DNA of 43,654 nt from Atractiella rhizophila (lineage: Eukaryota): positions 62,001 to 105,654 of the forward strand of contig MU271291.1 in the NCBI GenBank assembly GCA_021432655.1. Reading direction: 5' to 3'. Shown here in pieces: positions 20,375 to 40,312 of this stretch. A program made the position numbers and the translations under genes. Position 1 is the first letter of the stretch; each line of letters opens with the position of its first letter. The notes under the pieces were generated by a model that saw nothing but the letters and a program-made list of their open reading frames with translations, searched no databases and was not told the DNA's origin.

Positions 20375-20653
20375 TGTTGATTTGCTATTGTGACATCTCA
20401 ACGAAATCAAGCAACCCAATCTTAAACCGTTGAGGTATTCAGCTATTCAGCATGGAGCCAAGCACGGGGGAATGAGCAGGGGAAAGAGGGCGATAAAGAA
20501 AGGGAAAGAGGAAAGGTAGAAAGGTTAAGGAATGTCCAAGATATTTCAGGTGACGTTATAATTGTCCCACTACAAACTAACTCTGAACCACGGGTAAGGT
20601 CACGCAGATGATTTATCATTTCATTATCACTTCCATCGATATCCATTCTATTT

Positions 20654-20762
20654 CTATTGAAATTGCTGTTTCGCAGCCTTAACGAGGAACTCCACCGTTT
20701 CGTCCACCTTTGTAAGGAACGGCGCATGGCTCGCTTGAATCGATGTCGTCTTGACTTCTATC
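20654..20762 (-). pseudogene. Detached 3' end of alpha/beta-hydrolase copy A (carries the putative catalytic His)
   Basis: Reads IEVKTTSIQASHAPFLTKVDETVEFLVKAAKQQFQ*, homologous to the terminal exons at 28441-28580 and 30042-30175. It joins in frame to 26992 onward when the transposon and one TATC copy are removed. Confidence 0.9.
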
Positions 20763-20793
20763 CACCGTGGAAGCTCTTTCGGCAGGTGACCTG
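20763..20793 (+). repeat. Left terminal inverted repeat
   Basis: caccgtggaagctctttcggcaggtgacctg; 23/31 ungapped identity to the reverse complement of 26957-26987. Confidence 0.85.
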
Positions 20794-21324
20794 ATGGCTA
20801 AACGCAGGAACTCTATTTTGCCGTCAGGTCTCCTGCTTGCTACCAACACGCAGGTTTGTACTTAGCATTTGGCAGCAAGGATCTGATGGTCAATCTGATG
20901 GCTGTGGATAACGCATGTACATAATGATTTCGCGATGAATAGACTTGTCAACAAACACGATGTACATCTCAGATCGCACCGTCCGTCAGTCTCTGATACT
21001 TTAATCCGCACCTTAACGAGCTCGACTCTCCTCCTCTTCAAGTTGACTCAGTCCTCCTAAGTGGAAACTTCAATCTTCTTCCAGGCCGATAAGACGCCAT
21101 TCTGTTGTTACTCTAGATCATCTTGCTGCTGTCTTCACTTTTTCCTCGCTCGGTTCTCTGCCTCCGCTGCTCTCCATCCTGTCTCAGATGGCCTGTTTAT
21201 CCCTAAGATGACACAGCGGTCATTTCTAAATGGGGAGGTGAGCGTGGAAAGACTGAATACTTGAAAGCAATCTATTCAGCAATATTAGCAGCAGCACCGA
21301 CGGTGATCTTGGGGATTGGCTGAC

Positions 21325-24300
21325 CTAGGTGAGGATAAGCTCCTCCTCCACAAACTCTGGTGCCACAACCTCCTCTGCTCTTTCTACAATCCACCAGTCC
21401 GATTCATCATAAGTCGTAGCCCGTCCAACTAGGCCTCCGATGCACTTCAAGTCAACAACTCCTCGTTCCCGCAGCTGAAGTCCAAAAGGCATGTGAATGA
21501 GGCCGTCGTCCGTCACCGTCGTTTCCACCTCTCGCACAAACGCGAATAAGTGCGGGTTAGCTCTAAAGTGGAGCTGAATGATGCGATCTAGTCGGCCATA
21601 CGTTACGTGCGGAGCATAGACAATCGGAGCATCAGGTTTTTCAGCGTTGAGATCAGCGTAGGTGGTAATCTGCCGCTCTCCTTAGTTATCAGCTTGCAAA
21701 AAGAGGATAGACAAACCCTGCACCAGTTCCGACATCGACTAAAGTCACTCTGTATTGATCCTCCCCCCTCAGCGACGACGGTATCACCATTGTGATCAAG
21801 TTTAACTTTCCCCCACTCCCTAAGTCCCATCCCCTCCTCTTCCAGCTCCTTTCGGATCTCCATTTTTGTGAACTCCTGGTCCGATATGGTAAAGAGATGG
21901 TTGATCAGGATTCGGCGCTCATGTTCCGACAAATCGGAAAGAGTCAGTCCCCTCGAAGGACGGAGGAGAGAGCAAGCGTAGTTCGGAATTCTTTGCCCTT
22001 GAGTAAGGCTTCTGTCATTATCTGAGTCAAACGTGAGATGATATTTGATCTTGATTTGTCGTAGCTGCTCCATCTGGACAATGTGGTTCATCAGGTTTTC
22101 GTAAGGATGGATGCGCGAGCCAAGATGTGTTTTGAGAATGCCGAGAAGGCGCTCTCCTGCAAACGCCCATGTTGCCCAAGAAGGTCCAATCCAGTCATGG
22201 AAGTCAGGAATATGGAGGAAGCGATGGAGGACGGAGGGGCAAGCGGAGAGTCGCTGATACTTGTACTGATAGTAAAGCCTGAAACCAAATTTACTAAGGT
22301 CAGCTCTGACTTCAAGTACAATGAGGGGGGAGCAGAGCGACATGGAATAGCTGTGAGAGATGGCGGGATAGTCTTGGAGGATGACAAATATCTTACTGCT
22401 CATAATCTGCCTCCCATCGCTCAACATGCTCTCTCACATCCGCTCGACCTTCTGGATCGAGCCGATAGCTAATGCACGAAATGACAATCTTCCTTAAGTC
22501 AAGGAAATGCTTGTAGTAGTTGGGAGGCAGACGCCCCGGACCGCGAAGGACATAAGGACCTTGAATGAGGATGAAGTTGGCGAGATCTTCTGCTGTCAGG
22601 CTGGCTCGGTCATTCCATATGTTCCGCGCTCGTCGTCCAAAGATAGATGGTGTCAACTTGTTCATCTTCTCGATCTCGCCGCCAATCATTTCCCACATTG
22701 GCTCGTTGATCACATAGGGTCCTTTTTCGGTGTAATCTAATCCTTTGAACTCGCCTCTCCAAAAAGCAAGCAAATTGCGAATAATATTTTCAAAAATAAG
22801 ATGCATAAAGTCCTGGGCAAAAGACCAAGGGAAAACAACACCAGGAAAGCGAAACCAGAGTGTGCTCCCGTTAATGCCTGTGTCCTTCGACATCTCCTCT
22901 GCCTGTGCAGCGGACGCACAGTCTATCTGAAGACCTTGCTCTCGCATGGTCCTGTGGTCGCGGATGACCATCTTGGAGCGGTCATAGACTTCGTTCAGAG
23001 GGCGTGACCCTGTGTTCACAGAAGGAGGGACATCTTGGGGAGGATGAACAGGGCAGTAGAACGTTTTATTAAAGAGAAAACCTCGAATTAAACAAACAGA
23101 ACATGACGAAATACCATTAGGACCTTTCATATTCATCAACTTCTTCAATGCTTGACCGTCTCCAAGAATAAGTGAGAAAAATGCACGTAAAGTGAAACGG
23201 GAATGTGAAAGAATGTCTGGTGTGTTGGGTACACCTTTTGCAAGTTGAATTGACTCTACAAACAAAGGGTAAACAAATGAATCAAAGTCTTTCGGGGAAT
23301 ATTTACCAGGAATAATGAAAGATAACAGCATTTCTGCAGTATGATGAACAAGACGGGGATCGAGGTTATAATTTAGGATAACTCCCGGCCAACAAGTGTA
23401 CTTCCCTCTCTTCCAAAGAGCAAATCCATCAGTATAGAAAGCAAGAAAAACATCTCTGGAATCTTGAAAATATTTATAAGGCATCTGTTCTCCTTCTATG
23501 ACAACATTGGTGTTGCATAACTTCCGATACAACAACCCATCCAGCACCGAATTTAAACACCCGTCCTCTCGAACATTCTTTCCTCTGAAACTCATCTTCT
23601 CCGCCATTCCTGGATCGGCTGCCATTGCCACAAGCCGAGGAATGAGGGGAACATATTTCCAGGTCGCCCTTGGAATCCTCTTCCTTCCAACAAACTTCCA
23701 TCGGGCTTCTCCACACAGCTGGCACTTCTCGTCATTTTTGTATTGTGGGCATTCGTAATTGATGCACGAATTGATGCATCTCTCGTAGACTTTGATATCC
23801 AAAGAGGCAAGCCTCTTCAACCGATTCATTATCTGAGGAATCGAGGCCAATTTGACCTTTTTTTTCAAGATGTAGCGAAGACGCTCATAATTACGCCTTG
23901 AGAGCTTTGAGATCTTGAATAATTCAAAGACTTGAAAGGTCTCTATCTCCTCTGGTGAGAGTAAGCCCTCCACTGCAGCATAACATATAAGTCGGGTAGA
24001 GGATGAAGATTAAAGGAAATCTACCTAAGAAATCACCAGGAAATGCGGAAGCATCCTCCGCTTCGTAAAGGTACAGCTCTTCGATTAAATCGTCCAGCTC
24101 CTCGTCTCCGGAACTTGGTTCTCGATCAGGCTGATTTGCTCGATCTCTCGCACTATCTGCGGCTCCATGTCCGAGTTCCGCATCCATGATCTCATCGTCA
24201 TCCTCTTCCATGACAATCCTATGGTCGATGGTAGAAGAGACAGAGGCAAGCGGGGCTTCTGTGGCAGCAGGAGCATGTCCATTTGAAAACTCGAAATGTT

Positions 24301-24809
24301 GCATTGGCAGCTCCTCCTGCACTTCGGTCGTGCCATCGTTCACCACCTGGCTCTTCTAGCAGCCATAGAGAGATCATTGAAACATTGAAAGTGTGATAAA
24401 CAAAAAATGATTGAAGGACAAAAATGAAGTAAAGGCATGACGATTGTTAAACCCATTCCAGTAACCAGTAGAAGGAAGTACTCACCTGTTGTGCACCTCC
24501 ATTGTAATCCTGGTTATTCCACATCTGCAGTCGCTCCACTGCAGCTAAGCTGGGCAGCTCTTCCCGTTCATATTTATCAAAGAACTCCAATTTCTTCTTG
24601 ATTTCCGCAGTTTGATCCTGTTGTCCACTACGTCTTAGAAGCCGTTGACGCTCCTTAATGTGTTTACTAATTGTTCGAGTGGTGAGTTGTTTACCACAGC
24701 AAGGACAGGCTGGTTTGTGATAAGTTGACTTTGCCGTCCCCTGCAGTCGTCTGATTTTGGTGGGGAGAGGCGCATGATAGCCGAGAGGTTCGCGGTGACG
24801 CTTGTTCAT
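21325..24809 (-). CDS. CACTA/En-Spm Tnp2-family (Transposase_21-like) DDE transposase, ~1042 aa, 5 exons
   Basis: Inferred exons 24809-24486, 24346-24025, 23972-22397, 22278-21717, 21669-21325, all GT-AG, 3129 nt, in frame with no stops. Motifs: N-terminal CPCCGKQLTTRTISKH, CINSC...CQLCGEARW, YVPLIPRL, FYTDG, CWPGVILNYNLDP, IIPGKYSPKDFDSF, GDGQA...KGPNGISSCSVC, DFMHLIFEN, LHRFLHIPD...GPSWATWAFAGERLLG. Confidence 0.92.
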
Positions 24810-24984
24810 TATCTGGTGCTAAGAAGAGGTGTTTGGTTGAAGAGGAGAGGGTGGGTTTGAAATACGGGACATGTGACGTCAATCCAATCCAGTAGGGTCA
24901 AATCTCAAACGACGACCAGAGTTCACTCTCCCCTTGCAGAACTCTGCGACGCATCTGCCTCTTTGGTTTAAAACCACATCCATC

Positions 24985-26436
24985 ATGCCCCACAAGCGCT
25001 CGACCGCATCGACTTCAAGATCTGCTTCGAAATCAAGCACTTCTACCACTCAAGATGGAAAAATCAAGAAACAACTTGCTTTGAAAGAGAAGGAATTGTA
25101 TGCTGAGCAGGAGAAGAATGCACAGCTCCTAAGGGAGATTGCAGCTGCTAAAGGTGTGTCGTATTGTTTGCTAGTTGTCTGGGTCATGGGAGGAATGGGA
25201 AAAAGTGTGTGGCAAATTCTGTCAACTAGAACGAGGAGGCTATCTGTGCTATTCTCTGCGGACAGCAGTGCTGACGAAACCATTGAGATCAGTTTCGTGA
25301 TTTCTTAGCCTAAAATATCAAGAGTTCCATTTCTAAATGCTGATTGGCTGGTCAAAAGCTCAAGCACTCCAGGATCGTGCCAGGCTCAAGAGAGCGACAG
25401 CTGTTCCACGAAAGAAGATACCAAAGGTTACAGGTACTATTGGTGCCAAAGGCTTTAACCTGCAGAAGGTGCTTGGGGTGGACGATAAGGAATACCGAAA
25501 GTTTCGGGTCAGCATTTTCCTCTCCGGTCAGTTCCTTATATTTGGCTCATAGATGTTAGTCTGCTGTCCGAATCCACACCATGGCCCAGAACCTCCCTCT
25601 ACGTACCGTTGTATGGAATCAACTTGATCAAGGGAAGCTGCGTGCCGCTCAGGAAGCGGTATGGCGTTAGTATGACCTCTGACCACTGTTGATGTGATAG
25701 TAGGTTGCCTCACTCTTCCCGGAGCTTGACAAGAAACATGAAGACCTCAAGTACTATGTGGAGCGTTACCAAGTTCAAGTCTGCAAGGTTCAGCGTGAGG
25801 AAGAACGGAAAGCGCAAGGGGGAGTGAAGGAAGCGATCAGGAGCAGCAGTTCAGTGGCGACGAGGACAGGAAATGAGGACATCGACAGCGAGGTTGGAGC
25901 TGAACAGCATGGCATGTCGCCGGTTCCCGAACAGCACAGTGAGGTAGAAACACTTGAGGAGGAAGAGGAAGAAGGATTGTTTCTTGAGGACGAACATCTT
26001 ATTCGGGACAAGCGTGTTGGGCAAATGGTTGATGATGATTATGATTATGACGGAATGGTATGTCTAAAGGTTGAATATTTATTTTGAGGGATCCTCACAT
26101 AAGGAACAGATTCCTGCCCTCACAAATCAGAGTCCCAACACTACACCGACAAAGATGAACACTCGTGCCGGAAACAAGCGTCGAGTTGCACCAGCTTCGG
26201 AAGACGAGGGTTCTGAGTCGGAATTATGTGCTCTAAAGAAACGGAAGATCATTGGCAGCCGCACAATAGTCACAAGGAAGGTGAACTCTGCTTTTGGTGC
26301 TGGGAGGAAGGGGAGAAAAGACTCAATTATGCAGTTTGAAGGGCAGCAACGCGAAAGTTCTGTCGGATTTGATGTAAGTGTCTTCATGCGTTTTCTCTCA
26401 GCTTGTAGAGGTCCTGATTCCATTTTACAGTTCTAG
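24985..26436 (+). CDS. Transposon-borne second gene, uncharacterised ~346-aa protein (candidate TnpA-like accessory factor)
   Basis: Inferred exons 24985-25153, 25359-25507, 25560-25658, 25704-26057, 26110-26373, 26431-26436, all GT-AG and phase-compatible, 1041 nt. Coiled coil, then IPKVTGTIGAKGFNLQKVLG...FPELDK core, acidic tract and basic NLS-like LKKRK. Confidence 0.7.
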
Positions 26437-26956
26437 AAATCACGTCTTCATATTCAAGGTACGGCGTTCTTTTGGCTTCAGTGTCTCTCAAACCATGCTG
26501 ATTGCTTACGAGCTAGGTAAAAATAATTTCTTTGTTTATATCGCCAGATTCCAACTGCACGTGGGTACTTTCTAACAAATACCAACGGAATATGAACCTG
26601 ATGTCGATGACAGTGTCAAGAAACATCTCCCTTGTCAGATAATTATTTATCACTGTGTCCATATTGCATTAGGAAAGTGAAATACATGTGCATAATTGAT
26701 CCTAAAGGGTAGCAGCAAGTGTTACAAGTGTCAACGAGCGAAGAAATCAAGGAGCGCAGGAGCTGTAGCCAATTGTTAGGATCTGCCATCAGGTGCACGC
26801 AGGTCGCCTGCCACTAGCCATCAGGTTCTTGCAATATAGCTGACGGTTGGCAGTAGGCCACCTGATGATTGGACAAATCGCCGCGATCAGGTTGCCTGAT
26901 GGAGTTTCAGCAGGTAGCGTTCTCCTAACCGGAAGGCCGCCTGCTGAATTTGGTGG

Positions 26957-26987
26957 CAGGCCACCTTCCGAAAAGCTTTCTTCGGTG
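26957..26987 (-). repeat. Right terminal inverted repeat
   Basis: Reverse complement is caccgaagaaagcttttcggaaggtggcctg; immediately followed by the TATC duplication. Confidence 0.85.
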
Positions 26988-27891
26988 TATCCCTTCATCT
27001 TTGGCCCACTTGAGCATGGCTATAGTATTCAGAGCACAAGTCTAATCAGCCCGCATCCTGAGTATAACGTGCCCTAAATACTCACAACGACTGACGACCG
27101 GTGGAACGAGCATGTCCTGCTCTCCCAACAGGAAGCAGGTGTCCACAAACCTGTAAGCTGGATAGTTGATGTAGCCGTTGAAAGATTTGGTTGACTGTTT
27201 GTCTACAGCTGGCACGTAATATTTGTCGCGCAATTCTTCAGCTGTTGAATCGGGCGTCGTCACGCTCCTTCGCCCAACGAGAGCCAGACGCTCACCTTCC
27301 TCTATCGGGACGTCGCAGAACGCATACCTCCAACTTTCCGGATGGTTCTGCATGTAGTCGTTCTACAATTGTTCCTTCACAAGGGAATAGGACAGGAAGA
27401 GGAGAGAGGACACACGGGAGAGTCCTTCATGGCCTCAGGCAGAGACTCTCCCATCACATCACGGATCGACTTCCCAGGTGGAGGAATGAATGACGCGAGG
27501 TAAGCGAGCGCAATCACGCCTCCTTTCTTCCCTTCTTTTGCCCGATCAGCAGCTATTAATCCCTTACAAGCTTGTGTTCCAGGAAACCCGCCGTAGCTCG
27601 ACATGGCCACAACAACGTGCTGGCCACTCATCGTCAGCCCACATCACCATCACTCGAGCCAGAAGGGACGCGAACCTTTCCTTGCTCCGCCAACTTTCGG
27701 ATCTGTGCAGCTATCTGTGTCACGTCGTCCTCGAAACTTGCTGGGCCCTCCGGTCTCTCTCCCACGGAAGCCAAATCCGTAGGGTACACCTCGTAACCCA
27801 AGCTCCGAAGTCGAGGGGTAACTCGAGCGAAACACGGTTCAGCGAAGACTGAAGCGCCGGGGATCAGGACGAAGGCAATCATGTTGAGCAT
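26988..27891 (-). pseudogene. Alpha/beta-hydrolase copy A, 5' part, interrupted in the last exon by the transposon
   Basis: IAFVLIPGA, VVVAMSSYGG, GGVIALAYLASF, FLLGEQDML. The last exon MLKWAKDEGI runs into the TIR and terminates (HRRKLFGRWPATKFSRRPSG*) without the HAPF motif. Confidence 0.88.
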
Positions 27892-27969
27892 ATCTTTATG
27901 AGGATGGAACGTTTTGCTTGGTGATCTGAGTGGCTTGACTGGATGGAGAGAGGACGCGAGCCCATGTCG

Positions 27970-27976
27970 TTTTATA
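27970..27976 (-). promoter_or_regulatory. Putative TATA box of hydrolase copy A (equivalents at ~29546-29552 for B and ~31089-31095 for C)
   Basis: TATAAAA on the minus strand ~80 bp upstream of the ATG; positionally conserved in all three paralogs (TATAAGA in C). Confidence 0.5.
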
Positions 27977-28440
27977 CGCCTTCTCTCGGTTCTTCCTATC
28001 CGCTTCGATGTAAGCTGCTCATATTTTGTGACAAGTATTTCATTCCGGATATCAGCAACTCGATATACTTGATAACTCAGCTTTCAGAATCTTCGTAATC
28101 GAATGACAACACGCCTTCGTGAGGCGAACTCCTCTCCTGTACACTCACCACGTACTCCGATGTCCAGCGCGTCCACGTCCAGAGCCGACCTACCTTCGTT
28201 CAGCTGCCATATTTTATACTACTTGAATGTTCTGTTGGAAGTACCGATGTGTTTTCCCGTCGTCTAACCTATTTGGCTTTTTCTTGCTTTGTCCTCCTCT
28301 ACTTTATGACGGCCGTGAGGCGTCGAAAGGGGTTTCTGCACCATTTGAGGCACATTGATTTACTATAAATCGCAGCAGCAGCATTCCTGTTAACCCGCAT
28401 TGCACTTAAGTCCATGCTGGTCAGGCACCCACTGTCCCTT

Positions 28441-29466
28441 CTACCTTCCAGTTGTTTTAACAGTCTTGACGAGAAACTCCACCGTTTCGTCCACCTTCGT
28501 AAGGAACGGAGCGTGACCAGCCTTGATTGAGGTTATCTTGACTTCTACGCCTTCATTTTTGGCCCATTCGAGCATAGCTATCCACACCAGTTACCTCCCA
28601 TTTCCCAACTTCAGCATGCGTTGAACACATACAGTGACTGGTGGCTGGCGGAATGACCATGTCTAGCTCTCCCAAGAGGAAGTAGGTGTCCACGAACTTG
28701 TAAGCTGGATAATCGATGGCGGATCCGGTGAAGGATTTGGTGGACTGCTTGTCTGTTCCTGGCAAGAAATATTTGTCACGCAATTCCTGAGCTGTGGATT
28801 TAAACATCGTCAAGTTATCCTCCATTCAAGTGACCAAGGAAAGAACACCGGCCTTCATCCAGACGCTCACCTTCCTCTATCGGGACGTCGCAGAACGCAT
28901 ACCTCCAACTTTCCGGATGGTTCTGCATGTAGTCGTTCTACAATTTTCCTTTACGAGGGATAGGACAGGAAGAGGAAGGAAGGACACACGGGAGAGTCCT
29001 TCATGGCCTCAGGCAGAGACTCTCCCATCACATCGCGGATCGACTTCCCAGGTGGAGGAATGAATGACGCAAGGTATGCGAGCGCAACCACACCTCCCTT
29101 CTTCCCTTCTTTGGCCCGATCAGCAGCTATTAATCCCTTACAAGCTTGTGTTCCAGGAAACCCGCCGTAGCTCGACATGGCCACAACGACGTCCTGGCCA
29201 CTCATCGTCAGCGCACATCTCCATCACTCGAGCCAGAAGGGAACGCGAGCCTTTCCTTCCTCCGCCAACTTTCGGATCTGTGCAGCTATCTGTGTCACGT
29301 CGTCCTCGAAACTTGCTGGGCCCTTCGGTCTCTCTCCCACAGAAGCCAAATCCGTAGGGTGCACCTCGTAACCCAAGCTCCGAAGTCGCGGGGTAACTCG
29401 AGCGAAACACGGTTCAGCGAAGACTGAAGCGCCGGGGATGAGGACGAAGGCAATCATGTTGGGCAT
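28441..29466 (-). CDS. Alpha/beta-hydrolase copy B (Abhydrolase_6 / methylesterase-like), chimeric A/C gene, apparently intact, 5 exons
   Basis: FVLIPGA oxyanion strand, MSSYGG nucleophile elbow, LGELDMVIP acid region, AGHAPF His; stop at 28441-28443. Confidence 0.88.
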
Positions 29467-30041
29467 ATCTTTATGACGATGGAACGTTTTGCTTAGTGAT
29501 TTGAGTGGCTTGACTGGATGGGAGAAAGGACGCGAGTCCATGTCGTTTTATACGCCTTCTCTCGGTTCTTCCTATCCGCTTCGATGTAAGCTGCTCATAT
29601 TTTGTGACAAGTATTTCATTCCGGATATCAGCAACTCGATATACTTGATAACTCAGCTTTCAGAATCTTCGTAATCGAATCACAACACACCTTCGTGAGG
29701 CGAACTCCTCTCCTGTACACTCGCCACGTACTCCGATGTCCAGCGTGTCCAGGTCCGCCGACCTACCTTCATTCAGCTGTCATATTTCTACTATACACTA
29801 CTTGAATGTTCTGTTAGAATTATTTATTTTCCCTGCTGCGGTCTGCCGTCTAACGTATTTAACTTTTTCTTGCTTTATTCTCCTCTACTTTATAACGGAC
29901 GTTCGGCGTCGAAAGGAGTTTCTGAACCATCTGAGGCAAATTGATTTACTATAAATCACAGCAGCAGCATTCCTGTTAACCCGCGTTGCTTAAGTCCATG
30001 CTCGTCATTCACCTAATGTCCCTTCTACCGTCAAGTTGAAA

Positions 30042-31037
30042 TCACTCTTTTTTAACAGTCTTGACGAGAAACTCCACCGTTTCGTCCACCTTCGTAAGGA
30101 ACGGAGCGTGACCAGCCTTGATTGAGGTTATCTTGACTTCTACGCCTTCATTTTTAGCCCATTCGAGCATAGCTATCCACACCAGTTACCTCCCACTTCC
30201 CAACTTCAGCATGCGTTGAACACATACAGTGACTGGTGGCTAGCGGAATGACCATGTCTAGCTCTCCCAAGAGGAAGTAGGTGTCCACGAACTTGTAAGC
30301 TGGATAATCGATGGCGGACCCGGTGAAGGATTTGGTGGACTGCTTGTCTGTTCCTGGCAAGAAATATTTGTCACGCAATTCCTGAGCTGTGGATTTAAAC
30401 GTCGTCAAGTAATCCTCCATTCAAGTGACTGGGGAAAGAACACCCACCTTCATCCTCCGCAACATCACAGAAGAGGTACCTCCAACTTTCGGGATGACCT
30501 TCCATGTAATCATTCTACAGATCAAAATGAGATTTTTCTTTCACAAGCAGCGGAAATAAGGGGAGACACACTGGAGACTCCTTCATAGCTTCAGGCAGAG
30601 ACTCTCCCATCACGTCACGGATCGTTTTTCCTGGTGGAGGAATGAATGACGCGAGGTATGCGAGCGCAACCACGCCTCCTTTCTTCCCTTCTTTTGCACG
30701 ATCTGCAGCCGTCAACCCCTTGCAAGCTTGTGTGCCTGGGAACCCGCCGTAGCTCGACATGGCGACGACTATGTCCTGTTTCAGATCATCAGCGCCGCCC
30801 AGCGGCACTTCAAAAGCTCGCCTTTTCTTGCTCTACCAGCTTTCGGATCTGTGCCGATATCTGTTCAACGTCGTCCTCGAAACTCGCTGGACCCTCCGGT
30901 CTCTCTCCCACGGAAGCCAAATTCGTAGGGTACACCTCGTAGCCCAAGCTCTGAAGTCGAGGGGTAACTCGAGCGAAGCAAGGTCCAGCGAAGGCGGTGG
31001 CTCCAGGGATGAGGACGAAGGCGATCGTGTCTGACAT
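30042..31037 (-). CDS. Alpha/beta-hydrolase copy C, apparently intact, 5 exons
   Basis: MSDTIAFVLIPGA, DIVVAMSSYGG, GGVVALAYLASF, LGELDMVIP, AGHAPF...VKTVKKE*. Confidence 0.88.
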
Positions 31038-31599
31038 GTTGAGCTTGTTAATTCCAGTGGGTTGATGGGGGGACAGCTGGTCTCGTGCTCTTATAGGCCA
31101 TCTAGTTCAGTCGGCTCATTATTCCCGCTTCGACGGTAAGCTGGCTGTTGCTGCCTGACCAATCCATTCCGGAAGTAGTCTCGTTCGTGCGAGTGGACTT
31201 GCATTGCTTCATAGACCAAAGGCGAGGAAATTGATTGGTAATATGCCATCCTCAAGAGAATATGCTCTTCTCACGCGCAGTCACACCGCGTACTCCGGCG
31301 TCACGCGTCAACCCCGAAACAATCTCCCTTGGGTTGGCCACAGCCGGTATTCTCCTTAACCGCCTTCTGCCATCTCATAGATGTTCTCCCGTGTGCACCA
31401 GTGACATAGCCGTTGTTTCTTCAGCGTCTGATGTTTCCTGTCACCAATTTGTGACTCTAGCCGATAGACAGCAATTCCTTTGCATGTGTCAACACCGCTG
31501 TGACAAGAAAGCTCGATGCCGCACCTGCCCCAACTACCTGTGTTAAATAATCTAAACTACACAATGTCAAAGACCTACAAAATCAACGAATTGTTGCCC

Positions 31600-34645: not shown

Positions 34646-36265
34646 ATGGTAATGGAGTCTCGAGTAGTTCTCGTTGTTCCTCCTTCATTAACGAGAGTGG
34701 TCAAGACATACCTCGAAGACAAGGATTTTTTCGATAAAAAGCACGGGATATCTCCCTCAAAACTGAAAGATGGATATTTGGATATACCTACTTTGATTAT
34801 GAGTGAAGCAGAAGGGAATAAGGATGAGACTCTAAATCGAGACGGAGAACTCGATGCAGCCAACGGGTCAATCCTTCCACCTCCAAATCTGTACCCTCTT
34901 TCGGAGTCAGAAACAGTTCACGGTGCCTCCTCAGCTGCAGCTATTACATCTTTATCCTCCTCTTTCCCACAGCTTCTTGCCTACCTCTCACAGCACGATT
35001 CACGACCACCGACTTCTCTCTCTCCCCAACCTTCCACGATATCTACACACCTCCAACCTCCTCCTCTTCTCCTCCGCACCTTCACCTCCCTCTCCTCCCC
35101 GCCCTCGCATCCAATTCAAAGGTCGAAGGCATCGCACTGCGTCTCCCCATCGCACGGTCCGACGAGAAGCGGACAGGACGATCAAGTGGCTGTGGCTCGC
35201 CGACGGTTTGGGTGAAGGAGCAGAAGGAAAAGGAGGGGAAGAGAGGAGCAGGAGAAAGAGTTTTGGACGAGTTTGGCGCAGACGATGAAGACTGCGAAGG
35301 GCGAGGAGAGGAGGGTAGAGTGGTTCTGGGCGCCGGAACAGACAATGTTTAGTCGGGGGAACGCAGCGGAGAAGGGGAGGATTGCAAGATTGGAAAATNN
35401 NNNNNNNNNNNNNNNNNNNNNNNNNNNNNNNNNNNNNNNNNNNNNNNNNNNNNNNNNNNNNNNNNNNNNNNNNNNNNNNNNNNNNNNNNNNNNNNNNNNN
35501 NNNNNNNNNNNNNNNNNNNNNNNNNNNNNNNNNNNNATGGGTAGGGATTGGATATTTTACTTTGCCTTACTTGGTAGCTGGCGCGAAAGAGGTATGGGCT
35601 TGTGAAATCAATCCGTGGTCCATCGAAGGTTCTTCCATCACGTCCCCATGTGAAGGCAAATCATTTTTTCACTGTCATTCATAGGTCTCAAGCACGGTGC
35701 CTCCCGTCTCAAAATCTCCTACGATGTCCTCCCAACGAGCGACACGTCGAATTCCAGCTGCTCTGAGCCTGAAAACGCGAATCAGGATTGCAGGCTTCAC
35801 ATCCTCCCCACATACAACCACCTCTGCCTGTCTCATTTCCGAAATCGAGCTCAACACGTCTCACTCGGCATTCTCCCCTCCGCTCGTTTACCACCATCCT
35901 TCTCTGATTCCTCTTGCTCCAAAGACGAATGGTCATCGCCTCCTTCTTCTGGTCTTTGGGTTGGAATTAGAGCTTTGAAGTTGGACGAGGAGGGTGACTG
36001 CAGCGTGTTGAGGGTGCATGAAGAATTGGAGCTGTCTAGGGCGAGTTTGAAGCGAGAGGCAGAGAGGGAGGAGCTGGAAGTTTGGGGTGAAGAGGTGAGG
36101 AAGGTGGTGGAAAGGCTGTTGGAGGAGAGATGGGTGGATGAGGGGAAACAAGGACGGTTCAGAGTGAATGTGCAGCTGGAGTATTTGGGGAAGGTAAAGA
36201 GTATGGGTCCAAATGTGCTCCATGTTGTTGGAGATTTTAGAGTAGTTTTAATGCAAGTCAAGTGA
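34646..36265 (+). CDS. TRM12: tRNA wybutosine-synthesising protein 2 (TYW2/Trm12); spans an N gap and has apparent frameshifts
   Basis: FWTSLAQ, WAPEQTMFSRGNAAEKGRI, GIGYFTLPYLVAGAKEVWACEINPWSIEG, HVSLGILPS, LRVHE, VKSMGPNVLHVVGD. Confidence 0.85.
35399..35536. other. Assembly gap (N run)
   Basis: 138 N. Confidence 1.
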
Positions 36266-37604: not shown

Positions 37605-40312
37605 TCAGCGAACCTCGACGGCACGACCGTCCTTCCTGATGGCGACTTTGTGCTTCGCAATAGAGGCTTTGACAGGATGTTCGGCACTGAACACCTCGTC
37701 CAATTCCTCCAGTGACCTTCCCACAGTCTTAAAAAACACTCAGTGACACATTTTTGGGAAGAGGGACCAGAGGCTCACCTCGACAGCGAAGAAGTACCAC
37801 AAAATGGATTCGATGATGTCCCATCCGACAAATACGCAGACATATCTCCAGCCAATGTTTCCTGTGTTGGACGAGGATCAACTTACGTGTGGAGCGTAAA
37901 GCAGCGAAAAGTTTACCTAAAGCGATAGGACCTGAGAGTCGAAGGCCAAGTGAGCTAAAAGTTCAACGTTTCTGGGAAGATGCTGACCTGCATAGAGGTT
38001 TAGGAAACCAGTGGTGCTAACGATCAAAATCTTTGCAGCGACACCTGATAGTGGTCAGNNNNNNNNNNNNNNNNNNNNNNNNNNNNNNNNNNNNNNNNNN
38101 NNNNNNNNNNNNNNNNNNNNNNNNNNNNNNNNNNNNNNNNNNNNNNNNNNNNNNNNNNNNNNNNNNNNNNNNNNNNNNNNNNNNNNNNNNNNNNNNNNNN
38201 NNNNNNNNNNNNNNNNNNNNNNNNNNNNNNNNNNNNNNNNNNNNNNNNNNNNNNNNNNNNNNNNNNNNNNNNNNNNNNNNNNNNNNNNNNNNNNNNNNNN
38301 NNNNNNNNNNNNNNNNNNNNNNNNNNNNNNNNNNNNNNNNNNNNNNNNNNNNNNNNNNNNNNNNNNNNNNNNNNNNNNNNNNNNNNNNNNNNNNNNNNNN
38401 NNNNNNNNNNNNNNNNNNNNNNNNNNNNNNNNNNNNNNNNNNNNNNNNNNNNNNNNNNNNNNNNNNNNNNNNNNNNNNNNNNNNNNNNNNNNNNNNNNNN
38501 NNNNNNNNNNNNNNNNNNNNNNNNNNNNNNNNNNNNNNNNNNNNNNNNNNNNNNNNNNNNNNNNNNNNNNNNNNNNNNNNNNNNNNNNNNNNNNNNNNNN
38601 NNNNNNNNNNNNNNNNNNNNNNNNNNNNNNNNNNNNNNNNNNNNNNNNNNNNNNNNNNNNNNNNNNNNNNNNNNNNNNNNNNNNNNNNNNNNNNNNNNNN
38701 NNNNNNNNNNNNNNNNNNNNNNNNNNNNNNNNNNNNNNNNNNNNNNNNNNNNNNNNNNNNNNNNNNNNNNNNNNNNNNNNNNNNNNNNNNNNNNNNNNNN
38801 NNNNNNNNNNNNNNNNNNNNNNNNNNNNNNNNNNNNNNNNNNNNNNNNNNNNNNNNNNNNNNNNNNNNNNNNNNNNNNNNNNNNNNNNNNNNNNNNNNNN
38901 NNNNNNNNNNNNNNNNNNNNNNNNNNNNNNNNNNNNNNNNNNNNNNNNNNNNNNNNNNNNNNNNNNNNNNNNNNNNNNNNNNNNNNNNNNNNNNNNNNNN
39001 NNNNNNNNACGATTGCGCTAGGGGCGGCTTGCAGAATCAAAGGGATACGCCAGGCCCAGTTGCTCGTCATGTACGACGTTCCAAAGGTAATTGCTGCAGC
39101 TGGGATCGATCCTCCATTCCATCCTGTGTTGTACTTTTCCCAGTTGATGTACGTTAGCTAAATCAACAGGATAGGCAAAAAAAATCAACCAAGCCGGTGA
39201 TCTTTCCCCTCCAGTGAGGAGGAGCGACTTCGACGCCTGTTTCTCAGATTAGCCAGCGCGGAAGTCTCGACTGGGGTCAATTCAACTCACAATAAGTAGG
39301 TGCGCCGATGATGGCAATAGCGATTCTGTTCCCTAGTGAGTGATGCACCGGTTAGGTCAGCGAAATGCTACTCGCCCCATGCCAAGGATAAATCTGGATT
39401 GGAACAAATATTAAAAGACTGTGAACACAGGATGGGGTTCTTACCTTCCCGCAATAAATTGGCTTTTGTCGTTGCTGCTAGAAATGATAGCAGCTGGTAC
39501 AAGTCTCTGAGCCCACAAAGTTTCCCAAAGCTTGGAACGTACCACCGGTCATGATGATGATGCAACCAATAAACATGCCATATCTGCGACCCAAACGATC
39601 ACAAATAGGACCCTGTTAGCTTACAGTCAGTAAACATTTGACATGATGCCAGACTACGCACTCCAAAAAACAGAGCCCCAGCCATTTGACCAAATGTGTA
39701 ACAGGTGAAGATAATTCCTGAGATGAGCGAGCGATTAAGCGGTGTCATTCAACAACAAACGCGGAACGTACCAGTCGTTTTGTTCAATCCAGGTGAACCC
39801 GGGGTAATAGTGTGTTTGTACGGGGTCATACCGTTGATCTATCTCTCTTTAGGGTCTGAACGAAGCATTGTTCAAGTAAAGGGGCATACAGCCGTCATCA
39901 ACCTGAAATGAGTTTTGTTAGAGTTCGAAGGAGCAAACGGAATTGAACATACGAGCCGTCGTAACCATTACAGCAGCTCGTCAAGAATCCCAAGAAAGAG
40001 CAGAGCAGGATAATCTGACGGGCCGATTAACGGTACCCTTTATAATAACAAGTTCACCCACCATCCCTCCTTTAGACCAAGCTCTGAATTGCTCGCCTTC
40101 CTGAATTGCCGTCGCGAGTTCGACTACCGTGAAAGTTAGCTTCCTAACAGATCCTTGCTGACATGCTCACCATTAGCGGCTTCCTTGACATAGGCAATAT
40201 CCTTCAGACTAGCTTCTCCTGGTAGACCATGCTCGGTCTGTTCCAAGTCGTACTTCTCATCCTTTGAGGATGAGAGAGACAATGATCTGGTGGGGGTCAT
40301 GGTGGAAGCCAT
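37605..40312 (-). CDS. MFS sugar porter (lactose permease / cellodextrin-hexose transporter-like), many exons, interrupted by an N gap
   Basis: NGYDGSLMTAING, GRRYGMFIG, VEVAPPHWRGK, WAWRIPLILQAAP, TVGRSLEELDEVF; stop at 37605-37607. Confidence 0.9.
38059..39008. other. Assembly gap (N run)
   Basis: 950 N. Confidence 1.

Follow-up and report, generated by a model that had tools for sequence, protein, structure and literature searches.

Introduction

Plant En/Spm elements encode a second protein, TnpA, beside their Tnp2/TnpD transposase. It binds to clusters of family-specific motifs and induces both demethylation and activation, and the terminal motifs differ between plant Spm families (10.64898/2026.08.24.746577). 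An interaction between TnpA and TnpD was reported (PMC1636069), and TnpA has been modelled in complex with TnpD (PMC13547354). According to the first of these studies, proteins of the TnpA type seem to be confined to flowering plants, and fungal Spm elements typically have a transposase with a fused DNA-binding domain (10.64898/2026.08.24.746577). In the literature searched, with subscription papers and Repbase entries outside its scope, no description of a fungal partner protein of this type was found. If fungal elements have a conserved helical partner that is encoded separately and transcribed divergently, this would extend or qualify the model of a TnpA confined to flowering plants.

Here, a two-gene element of Atractiella rhizophila is analysed. 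The window, i.e. the whole stretch of DNA under study, comprises 43,654 nucleotides (contig MU271291.1, positions 62,001 to 105,654 of the forward strand), and coordinates without a locus number refer to it. Gene 2 is a real, spliced second gene within a cut-and-paste transposon of this root-associated fungus. As in plant En/Spm, it encodes a second element-borne protein beside a Tnp2 transposase, the subterminal motifs are clustered and family-specific, and the putative DNA-binding unit is probably composed of three helices, which in the case of gene 2 is predicted from a paralogue. In contrast to TnpA, which is alternatively spliced or encoded head-to-tail with the transposase, gene 2 lies head-to-head on its own strand. 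TnpA contains two tandem helix-turn-helix units, whereas gene 2 has apparently one core of about 95 aa with low-complexity flanks. No sign of the C-terminal beta-barrel of TnpA was seen in the gene 2 protein.

Other described systems share single features with this locus. Fungal EnSpm/CMCT elements have the same CAC..GTG termini, target-site duplications within 2-5 bp and a transposase of the Tnp2 type, in which the DDE, C(2)C and H(3)H motifs occur; in the rust families the duplication is 3 bp, whereas it is 4 bp here (Kojima 2025, PMC12730594). For Cryptococcus CNIRT6, one gene annotation is mentioned (PMC12810828), and in the parts covered neither of the two papers describes a head-to-head three-helix partner. 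PIF/Harbinger elements also carry a separate gene for a small helical partner beside the transposase, but the transposase differs: Here it is Tnp2/CMC (PF02992). Single-BEN factors combine a coiled coil with a small helical domain, a layout resembling that of gene 2. TET/JBP-carrying fungal transposons have a dioxygenase cargo, whereas gene 2 encodes a short helical core with low-complexity flanks. A Pfam scan of five gene 2 exons, of its public 93-aa annotation (P0003) and of 12 paralogue domains yielded no family, including TnpA, Myb/SANT, BEN and dioxygenase.

The element and its insertion site

The element and its flanks have the following features:

20763..26987, no strand: EnSpm/CACTA-type (CMC/CMCT) DNA transposon, 6,225 bp; ends CACCG...CGGTG, inverted repeat imperfect and about 20 bp long
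20759..20762, + strand: left target-site duplication TATC, 4 bp
26988..26991, + strand: right target-site duplication TATC, 4 bp
21325..24809, - strand: Tnp2 transposase, intact, encoded in five exons (1041-1045 aa), PF02992, N-terminal Cys/His motif
24810..24984, no strand: interval between the gene 2 ATG and the transposase ATG, 175 bp, putative bidirectional promoter

The boundaries were derived from ends common to other genomic copies, from empty-site paralogues of the insertion site at 28531 and 30126 and from loose contig ends of the public run X2 at 20763. Termini and target-site duplication enclose both genes, so that gene 2 lies inside a transposon, as the sequence-only reading had assumed. 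The head-to-head arrangement with a gap of 175 bp between the start codons was also described correctly there. Among seven distinct insertions with both ends, six are flanked by a 4-bp duplication and one by a duplication of 3 bp. A Transposase_21 (Tnp2) domain, the DDE/C(2)C/H(3)H motifs, CA..TG termini, a duplication within 2-5 bp and clustered subterminal repeats are all present, and the element conforms to the CMCT definition (Kojima 2025, PMC12730594). A search of the genome found the 6.2-kb element once, one partial transposase copy with 89% identity and copies of both ends; the left end matches 14 other places.

The element is inserted into a tandem array of three alpha/beta-hydrolase-like genes, where it interrupts the first gene in its last coding exon, and the other paralogues represent the empty site. 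These genes occupy 20640-20762 and 26988-31100 with a spacing of about 1.57 kb. Outside the element and close to its right end, a + strand GT-AG intron at 27153-27208 is spliced in X2 (depth 68). It is antisense to the interrupted hydrolase gene, and the transcript possibly started in the terminus. The window contains N runs at 35399-35536 and 38059-39008, and the long open reading frames near 38000-39160 are artefacts.

The transposase matches PF02992 with E 3.6e-15 and 56.2 bits (cut-off 28.6). Inspection of the gene model located D396, D486 and E782 as well as CSVC at 505-508 (CxxC) and HRFLH at 758-762 (HxxxH). Four joints of this gene, on the strand opposite to gene 2, are present in X2 contigs; they correspond to three coding introns and one in the 3' UTR, and intron 2 is predicted only. 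Intron 2 (23973-24036) is needed for the reading frame and was not seen spliced; the sole contig there, 23994-24357, enters the intron. Its retention would yield a short N-terminal product. In a tree of 34 sequences, each with 250 or more aligned residues, the transposase groups with five other copies on a long branch (support 1.0).

Gene 2 is spliced as predicted

Gene 2 comprises these parts:

24985..25153, + strand: exon 1, aa 1-56; rich in Ser/Thr at its start, followed by the beginning of the coiled coil; joint in run X2
25359..25507, + strand: exon 2, aa 57-106; end of the coiled coil, begin of the core; joints in run X2
25560..25658, + strand: exon 3, aa 107-139; helix 1, turn with Trp125 and helix 2 according to a low-confidence model; joints in run X2
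25704..26057, + strand: exon 4, aa 140-257; FPEL motif, putative helix 3, then acidic tract; joints in run X2
26110..26373, + strand: exon 5, aa 258-345; low-complexity, with a basic patch at aa 279-326 that may serve as NLS
26431..26436, + strand: coding part of exon 6, TTC TAG; joint 26373/26431 in run X2
25418..25796, + strand: core, aa 77-170, net basic, across exons 2-4; putative three-helix DNA-binding domain

Joining the six exons yields a coding sequence of 1041 nt, i.e. 346 aa plus stop, which bears out the proposed six-exon gene of about 346 aa with TTC TAG as its last exon. The introns are of the GT-AG type and 205, 52, 45, 52 and 57 nt long. All five were found as GT..AG joints with exactly these lengths in X2 contigs. 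The splicing evidence comes from X2, as run X1 provided three contigs only, none with gene 2 joints. The library type of X2 is unrecorded and its source may be the same strain as that of the assembly; splicing is thus proven, but the support is not independent of the assembly. The spliced contigs of gene 2 have depths of 458 and 1147 and those of the transposase 6-22, values that cannot rank the two genes since they are contig depths. A candidate intron in the 3' UTR of gene 2 (26459-26516), whose splice signals also occur in the derivatives described below, is absent from the X2 joint list.

The coiled coil, core, acidic tract and basic patch seen by the sequence-only reading are all present in the protein. 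The coiled-coil-like segment spans aa about 25-70. The core contains 18 K/R versus 10 D/E. Its classification as a putative DNA-binding domain is based on a weak similarity to a paralogous domain, a common Atlas cluster and the fold of a paralogue (see below). Codons of gene 2 are G-rich in position 1 and A-rich in position 2. The public NCBI annotation contains only a 93-aa fragment encoded by exons 2 and 3, an Atractiella rhizophila hypothetical protein (P0003). This means, gene 2 is mis-annotated in public data.

Terminal motif and non-autonomous derivatives

Both ends of the element carry clustered palindromes:

20763..20870, no strand: left terminal region; palindromes at 20783 and 20825; 92.6-94.4% identity in 6 derivatives
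26741..26987, no strand: right terminal region; near-palindromes at 26800, 26854, 26888, 26933 and 26957; 84-89% identity in derivatives

The exact palindrome CAGGNNNCCTG occurs four times in the window, where 0.78 are expected, and one of 100 shuffles reached four. All four copies are located at the element ends, as are all seven near-palindromes of the element. CAGG/CCTG half-sites number 17 in 358 terminal bp, i.e. 47.5/kb compared to 7.7/kb in the window, a sixfold enrichment. When the element was compared with six derivatives (five on the right), two of 68 motif columns but 34 of 205 other columns were variable (p=0.003), a result somewhat favoured by the fact that motif columns were defined on the derivative majority. 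The subterminal CAGG-N3-CCTG palindromes pointed out earlier are therefore real, clustered at the ends and conserved in derivatives.

The six derivatives are 1.34-1.36 kb long, and their ends are 84-94% identical to those of the element. Their interior, with 65-70% identity, is a decayed copy that runs from the promoter through the first exon and first intron of gene 2 and continues with the last part of exon 5 and the 3' region. These decayed remains indicate that gene 2 travelled with the element lineage. Transposase and gene 2 core are missing, so that whatever the ends need has to come in trans.

Search for relatives of gene 2

No homologue of gene 2 was found in 5.8 billion proteins or 1.84 billion representatives. 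With exon 4 as query, the protein collections gave no match, and with exon 2 only the 93-aa annotation of gene 2 itself was recovered; likewise, P0003 matched only itself among the 1.84 billion representatives. Metagenome scans with P0003 and with the transposase revealed no relative. In the genome, neither a host donor gene nor an intact second copy was found. Judged by sequence, the gene 2 protein belongs to no named family.

Several candidates were rejected. PDB sequence matches to EGFR kinase, LaTranC and RanBP2 are short chance matches, a look-alike in locus L059 is an off-frame piece of transposase, and two weak matches within the genome are off-frame in a gene similar to that for ribosomal protein S2. 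The contigs L075 and L076 are 97% identical over 3.2 kb spanning this gene, which suggests that they are duplicated or allelic; copy counts may therefore be inflated. At L032:2556-5489, helicase-like reading frames, which we take by eye to be Helitron-like, occupy the place of the upstream part of the closest transposase copy. Hence, no gene 2 copy is left at this locus.

A head-to-head gene family in other Tnp2 elements

Since no relatives were found in the large collections, the neighbourhoods of transposases in the same genome were examined. Forty stretches around transposase matches were chosen from 55, a choice that favoured long open frames and the upstream side. A transposase match was present in 38 of them. 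A second gene with a common domain, designated ORF2, is present in 24 of these 38, always upstream on the opposite strand, i.e. head-to-head. The profile of this domain was built from 12 stretches and recovered it in 12 of the remaining 26. In seven elements, terminal inverted repeats and a 7-bp target-site duplication enclose both genes. They have CTC or CCCTG ends, and their duplications exceed the 2-5 bp of the CMCT clade:

L037:410-7322, Tnp2 element
L042:2220-9218, Tnp2 element
L044:523-7945, Tnp2 element
L051:333-7212, Tnp2 element
L053:922-7645, Tnp2 element
L056:1703-9301, Tnp2 element
L067:1522-8934, Tnp2 element

Terminal motifs differ among the Tnp2 element families of this genome. 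The transposase of the element studied here contains no copy of the ORF2 domain, and a clear ORF2 was found at none of the five other members of its clade.

To remove the sampling bias of transposase-centred stretches, the search was reversed. Two domain queries gave 31 ORF2 places, including the 2 query sites. A divergent transposase within 2.5 kb is present at 18 of them. One further place is a tandem duplicate 5.4 kb away, and one lies behind the transposase of another element. Twelve places are without a divergent transposase, seven of which also lack a terminus detectable with the probes used; four of the 31 have a family terminus without transposase (one has both ends). The sequence-only reading had asked whether homologues consistently lie divergently beside Tnp2 transposases in basidiomycetes. 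Probable homologues are indeed head-to-head far above chance, in the one genome that could be assessed: A search with the paralogue profile found seven proteins, all labelled as the same organism.

L033/L034, the only pair that could be used, shows purifying selection on the ORF2 domain, with a dN/dS of 0.084 compared to 0.151 for the transposase. Of the eight pairs, four were saturated and another (0.435) was based on three synonymous changes.

A third open reading frame is located beyond ORF2 in four loci (L035:3551-4045, L036:5956-6462, L041:4633-5217, L037:5853-6380). It matches no Pfam family, and a GFGHKLDP motif is common to three of the four.

Gene 2 as a possible distant family member

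The tests of gene 2 against the ORF2 family gave mixed results. Direct tblastn and phmmer comparisons between gene 2 and the paralogues yielded no match, and an ORF2 profile from nine sequences did not separate the gene 2 core from 2000 shuffles. In comparison with 12 paralogues, the core reached a best pairwise z of 5.7 and a summed z of 12.0, each matched by none of 500 shuffles. It ranked 3 of 502 with the 12-paralogue profile and 8 of 1002 with a trimmed profile, and hhalign against the former gave P 0.0036 at 9% probability. The positive tests thus correspond to p about 0.004-0.008, values that come from tests reusing the same sequences and picked after looking. The best alignment falls on the W...FP.L segment every time.

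Further likeness comes from clustering and gene layout. An Atlas cluster (101 aa, 104 members, mostly Basidiomycota) is third both for P0003 (0.87, a lead only) and for the paralogue P0009 (0.92), where the clusters were equated by identical descriptors. Gene 2 agrees with four of seven paralogues scored in its position and orientation and in having a coiled-coil-like segment ahead of the domain. The order of coiled coil, then domain, is that of the ORF2s of L033-L036. Gene 2 has five introns, whereas the paralogous ORF2 domains each lie within a single exon. With moderate confidence, the sequence comparisons suggest that the gene 2 core belongs, as a remote relative, to an unnamed family of three-helix domains in second genes of other fungal Tnp2 elements.

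The fold was predicted for the ORF2 domain of L061, the paralogue closest to gene 2, with 12 sequences. The model shows three confident long helices and a short one, with a core pLDDT of about 90. Foldseek against PDB and viral models found nothing at E <= 0.001. An exhaustive aligner compared the paralogue model with 48,161 chains. Its top match was the BEND6 BEN-DNA structure (Z 6.4, rmsd 3.0, 66/92 aligned), a Z below the level that the tool deems informative for helical bundles, so the match may reflect a common arrangement only. The top 30 also include the BEN domains of Bsg25A, BEND3 and BANP, which makes four BEN structures, as well as P-element transposase, capicua and homeodomains (Z 5.1-5.6). 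Unrelated helical proteins that do not bind DNA are among these 30, too, and tie with the middling Z 6.4; Reb1 appears only at Z 5.2. The definition of the BEN domain comprises five helices with a loop in the middle (PMC10789644), in contrast to the three long helices and one short helix of the paralogue model. The model of truncated P0003 itself (pLDDT 58, last helix missing, best Z 4.3) is uninformative with respect to fold matches. A helix-turn-helix pattern around Trp is predicted again, at low confidence and guided by the paralogues.

Possible role of the gene 2 protein

Gene 2 is best explained as the element's own accessory gene. By analogy with plant En/Spm, we lean slightly towards its product being a putative end-binding or regulatory accessory that is TnpA-like in role without being a demonstrated TnpA homologue. 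The protein might dimerise via its coiled coil, its basic patch might take it into the nucleus, and it might bind the inverted CAGG half-sites near both ends. Like TnpA, it would then help the transposase to assemble the ends and/or maintain the activity of the shared promoter, with the acidic tract as a possible transcriptional activator. The protein would act in trans on the 1.35-kb derivatives. The sequence-only reading had suggested that gene 2 could be the end-binding or anti-silencing half of a two-component system, with TnpA and the Myb/SANT partner of PIF/Harbinger as models. Of this, a gene that is transcribed, spliced, located inside the element and part of its lineage has stood, together with a conserved terminal motif; a Pfam match to either model protein was not found.

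Three other explanations have to be weighed. An accessory with the same core could be under selection without reading the terminal motif: It might contact proteins or chromatin, e.g. for target choice, restraint of the transposase or shielding from silencing, and the transposase would bind CAGG. We consider this unlikely, but not far-fetched. The transposase has its own N-terminal Cys/His motif, and fused DNA-binding domains are reported for fungal Spm transposases (10.64898/2026.08.24.746577). Moreover, the BEN fold match is not decisive, and any binder would fit the conserved terminal motif. On the other hand, the gene 2 core is net basic, the best fold matches of the paralogue repeatedly include BEN and helix-turn-helix proteins, a coiled coil joined to a small domain suits a palindromic site, and the ORF2 domain is absent from the transposase.

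Gene 2 could also be unrelated to the ORF2 family: It might have been captured from the host or have arisen de novo as a passenger, transcribed from the promoter of the element but useless for transposition. It lacks a significant direct match to paralogues or database proteins, its five introns set it apart from the single-exon paralogous domains, and its clade-mates have no recognisable ORF2. Nevertheless, no host donor gene was found in the genome, and position, orientation and the order of coiled coil and domain are those of the ORF2s of L033-L036. The recurrent alignment on the W...FP.L segment also argues against a passenger, and so does the fact that gene 2 is intact, while the derivative copy, about 30% diverged, has decayed. 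We judge this explanation improbable. Even less credit, very little indeed, can be given to an incidental or decaying reading frame, i.e. a spliced transcript from which no selected protein is made. Its proponents could refer to the failure to find an intact second copy and to the 93 aa retained in the public annotation. An open frame of 346 codons across five RNA-confirmed introns, the G-rich first and A-rich second codon positions and the intact partner transposase speak against it.

If the gene 2 protein does not bind, the locus is no more than a common CACTA-type element of two genes, the second of which is an orphan. The TnpA-like role that we prefer leads to a wider, rather doubtful proposal: At least two deep basidiomycete CMC lineages, one with CAC ends and 4-bp duplications and one with CCCTG/CTC ends and 7-bp duplications, might carry a free-standing, BEN-like, sequence-specific regulator that co-evolves with the terminal motif of its family. 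This regulator would be a fungal counterpart of TnpA, which originated or split off independently. If true, a function would be found for basidiomycete hypothetical proteins that form an unnamed family. The locus combines a two-gene element that is intact and expressed with a candidate site of 11 bp and with derivatives that have the ends but neither protein.

An element of 5.6 kb at L099:2249-7877 has both family ends and ORF2 and is without a detectable transposase. In keeping the second gene it resembles Arabidopsis EN/SPM1, 1A and 4 (PMC13547354).
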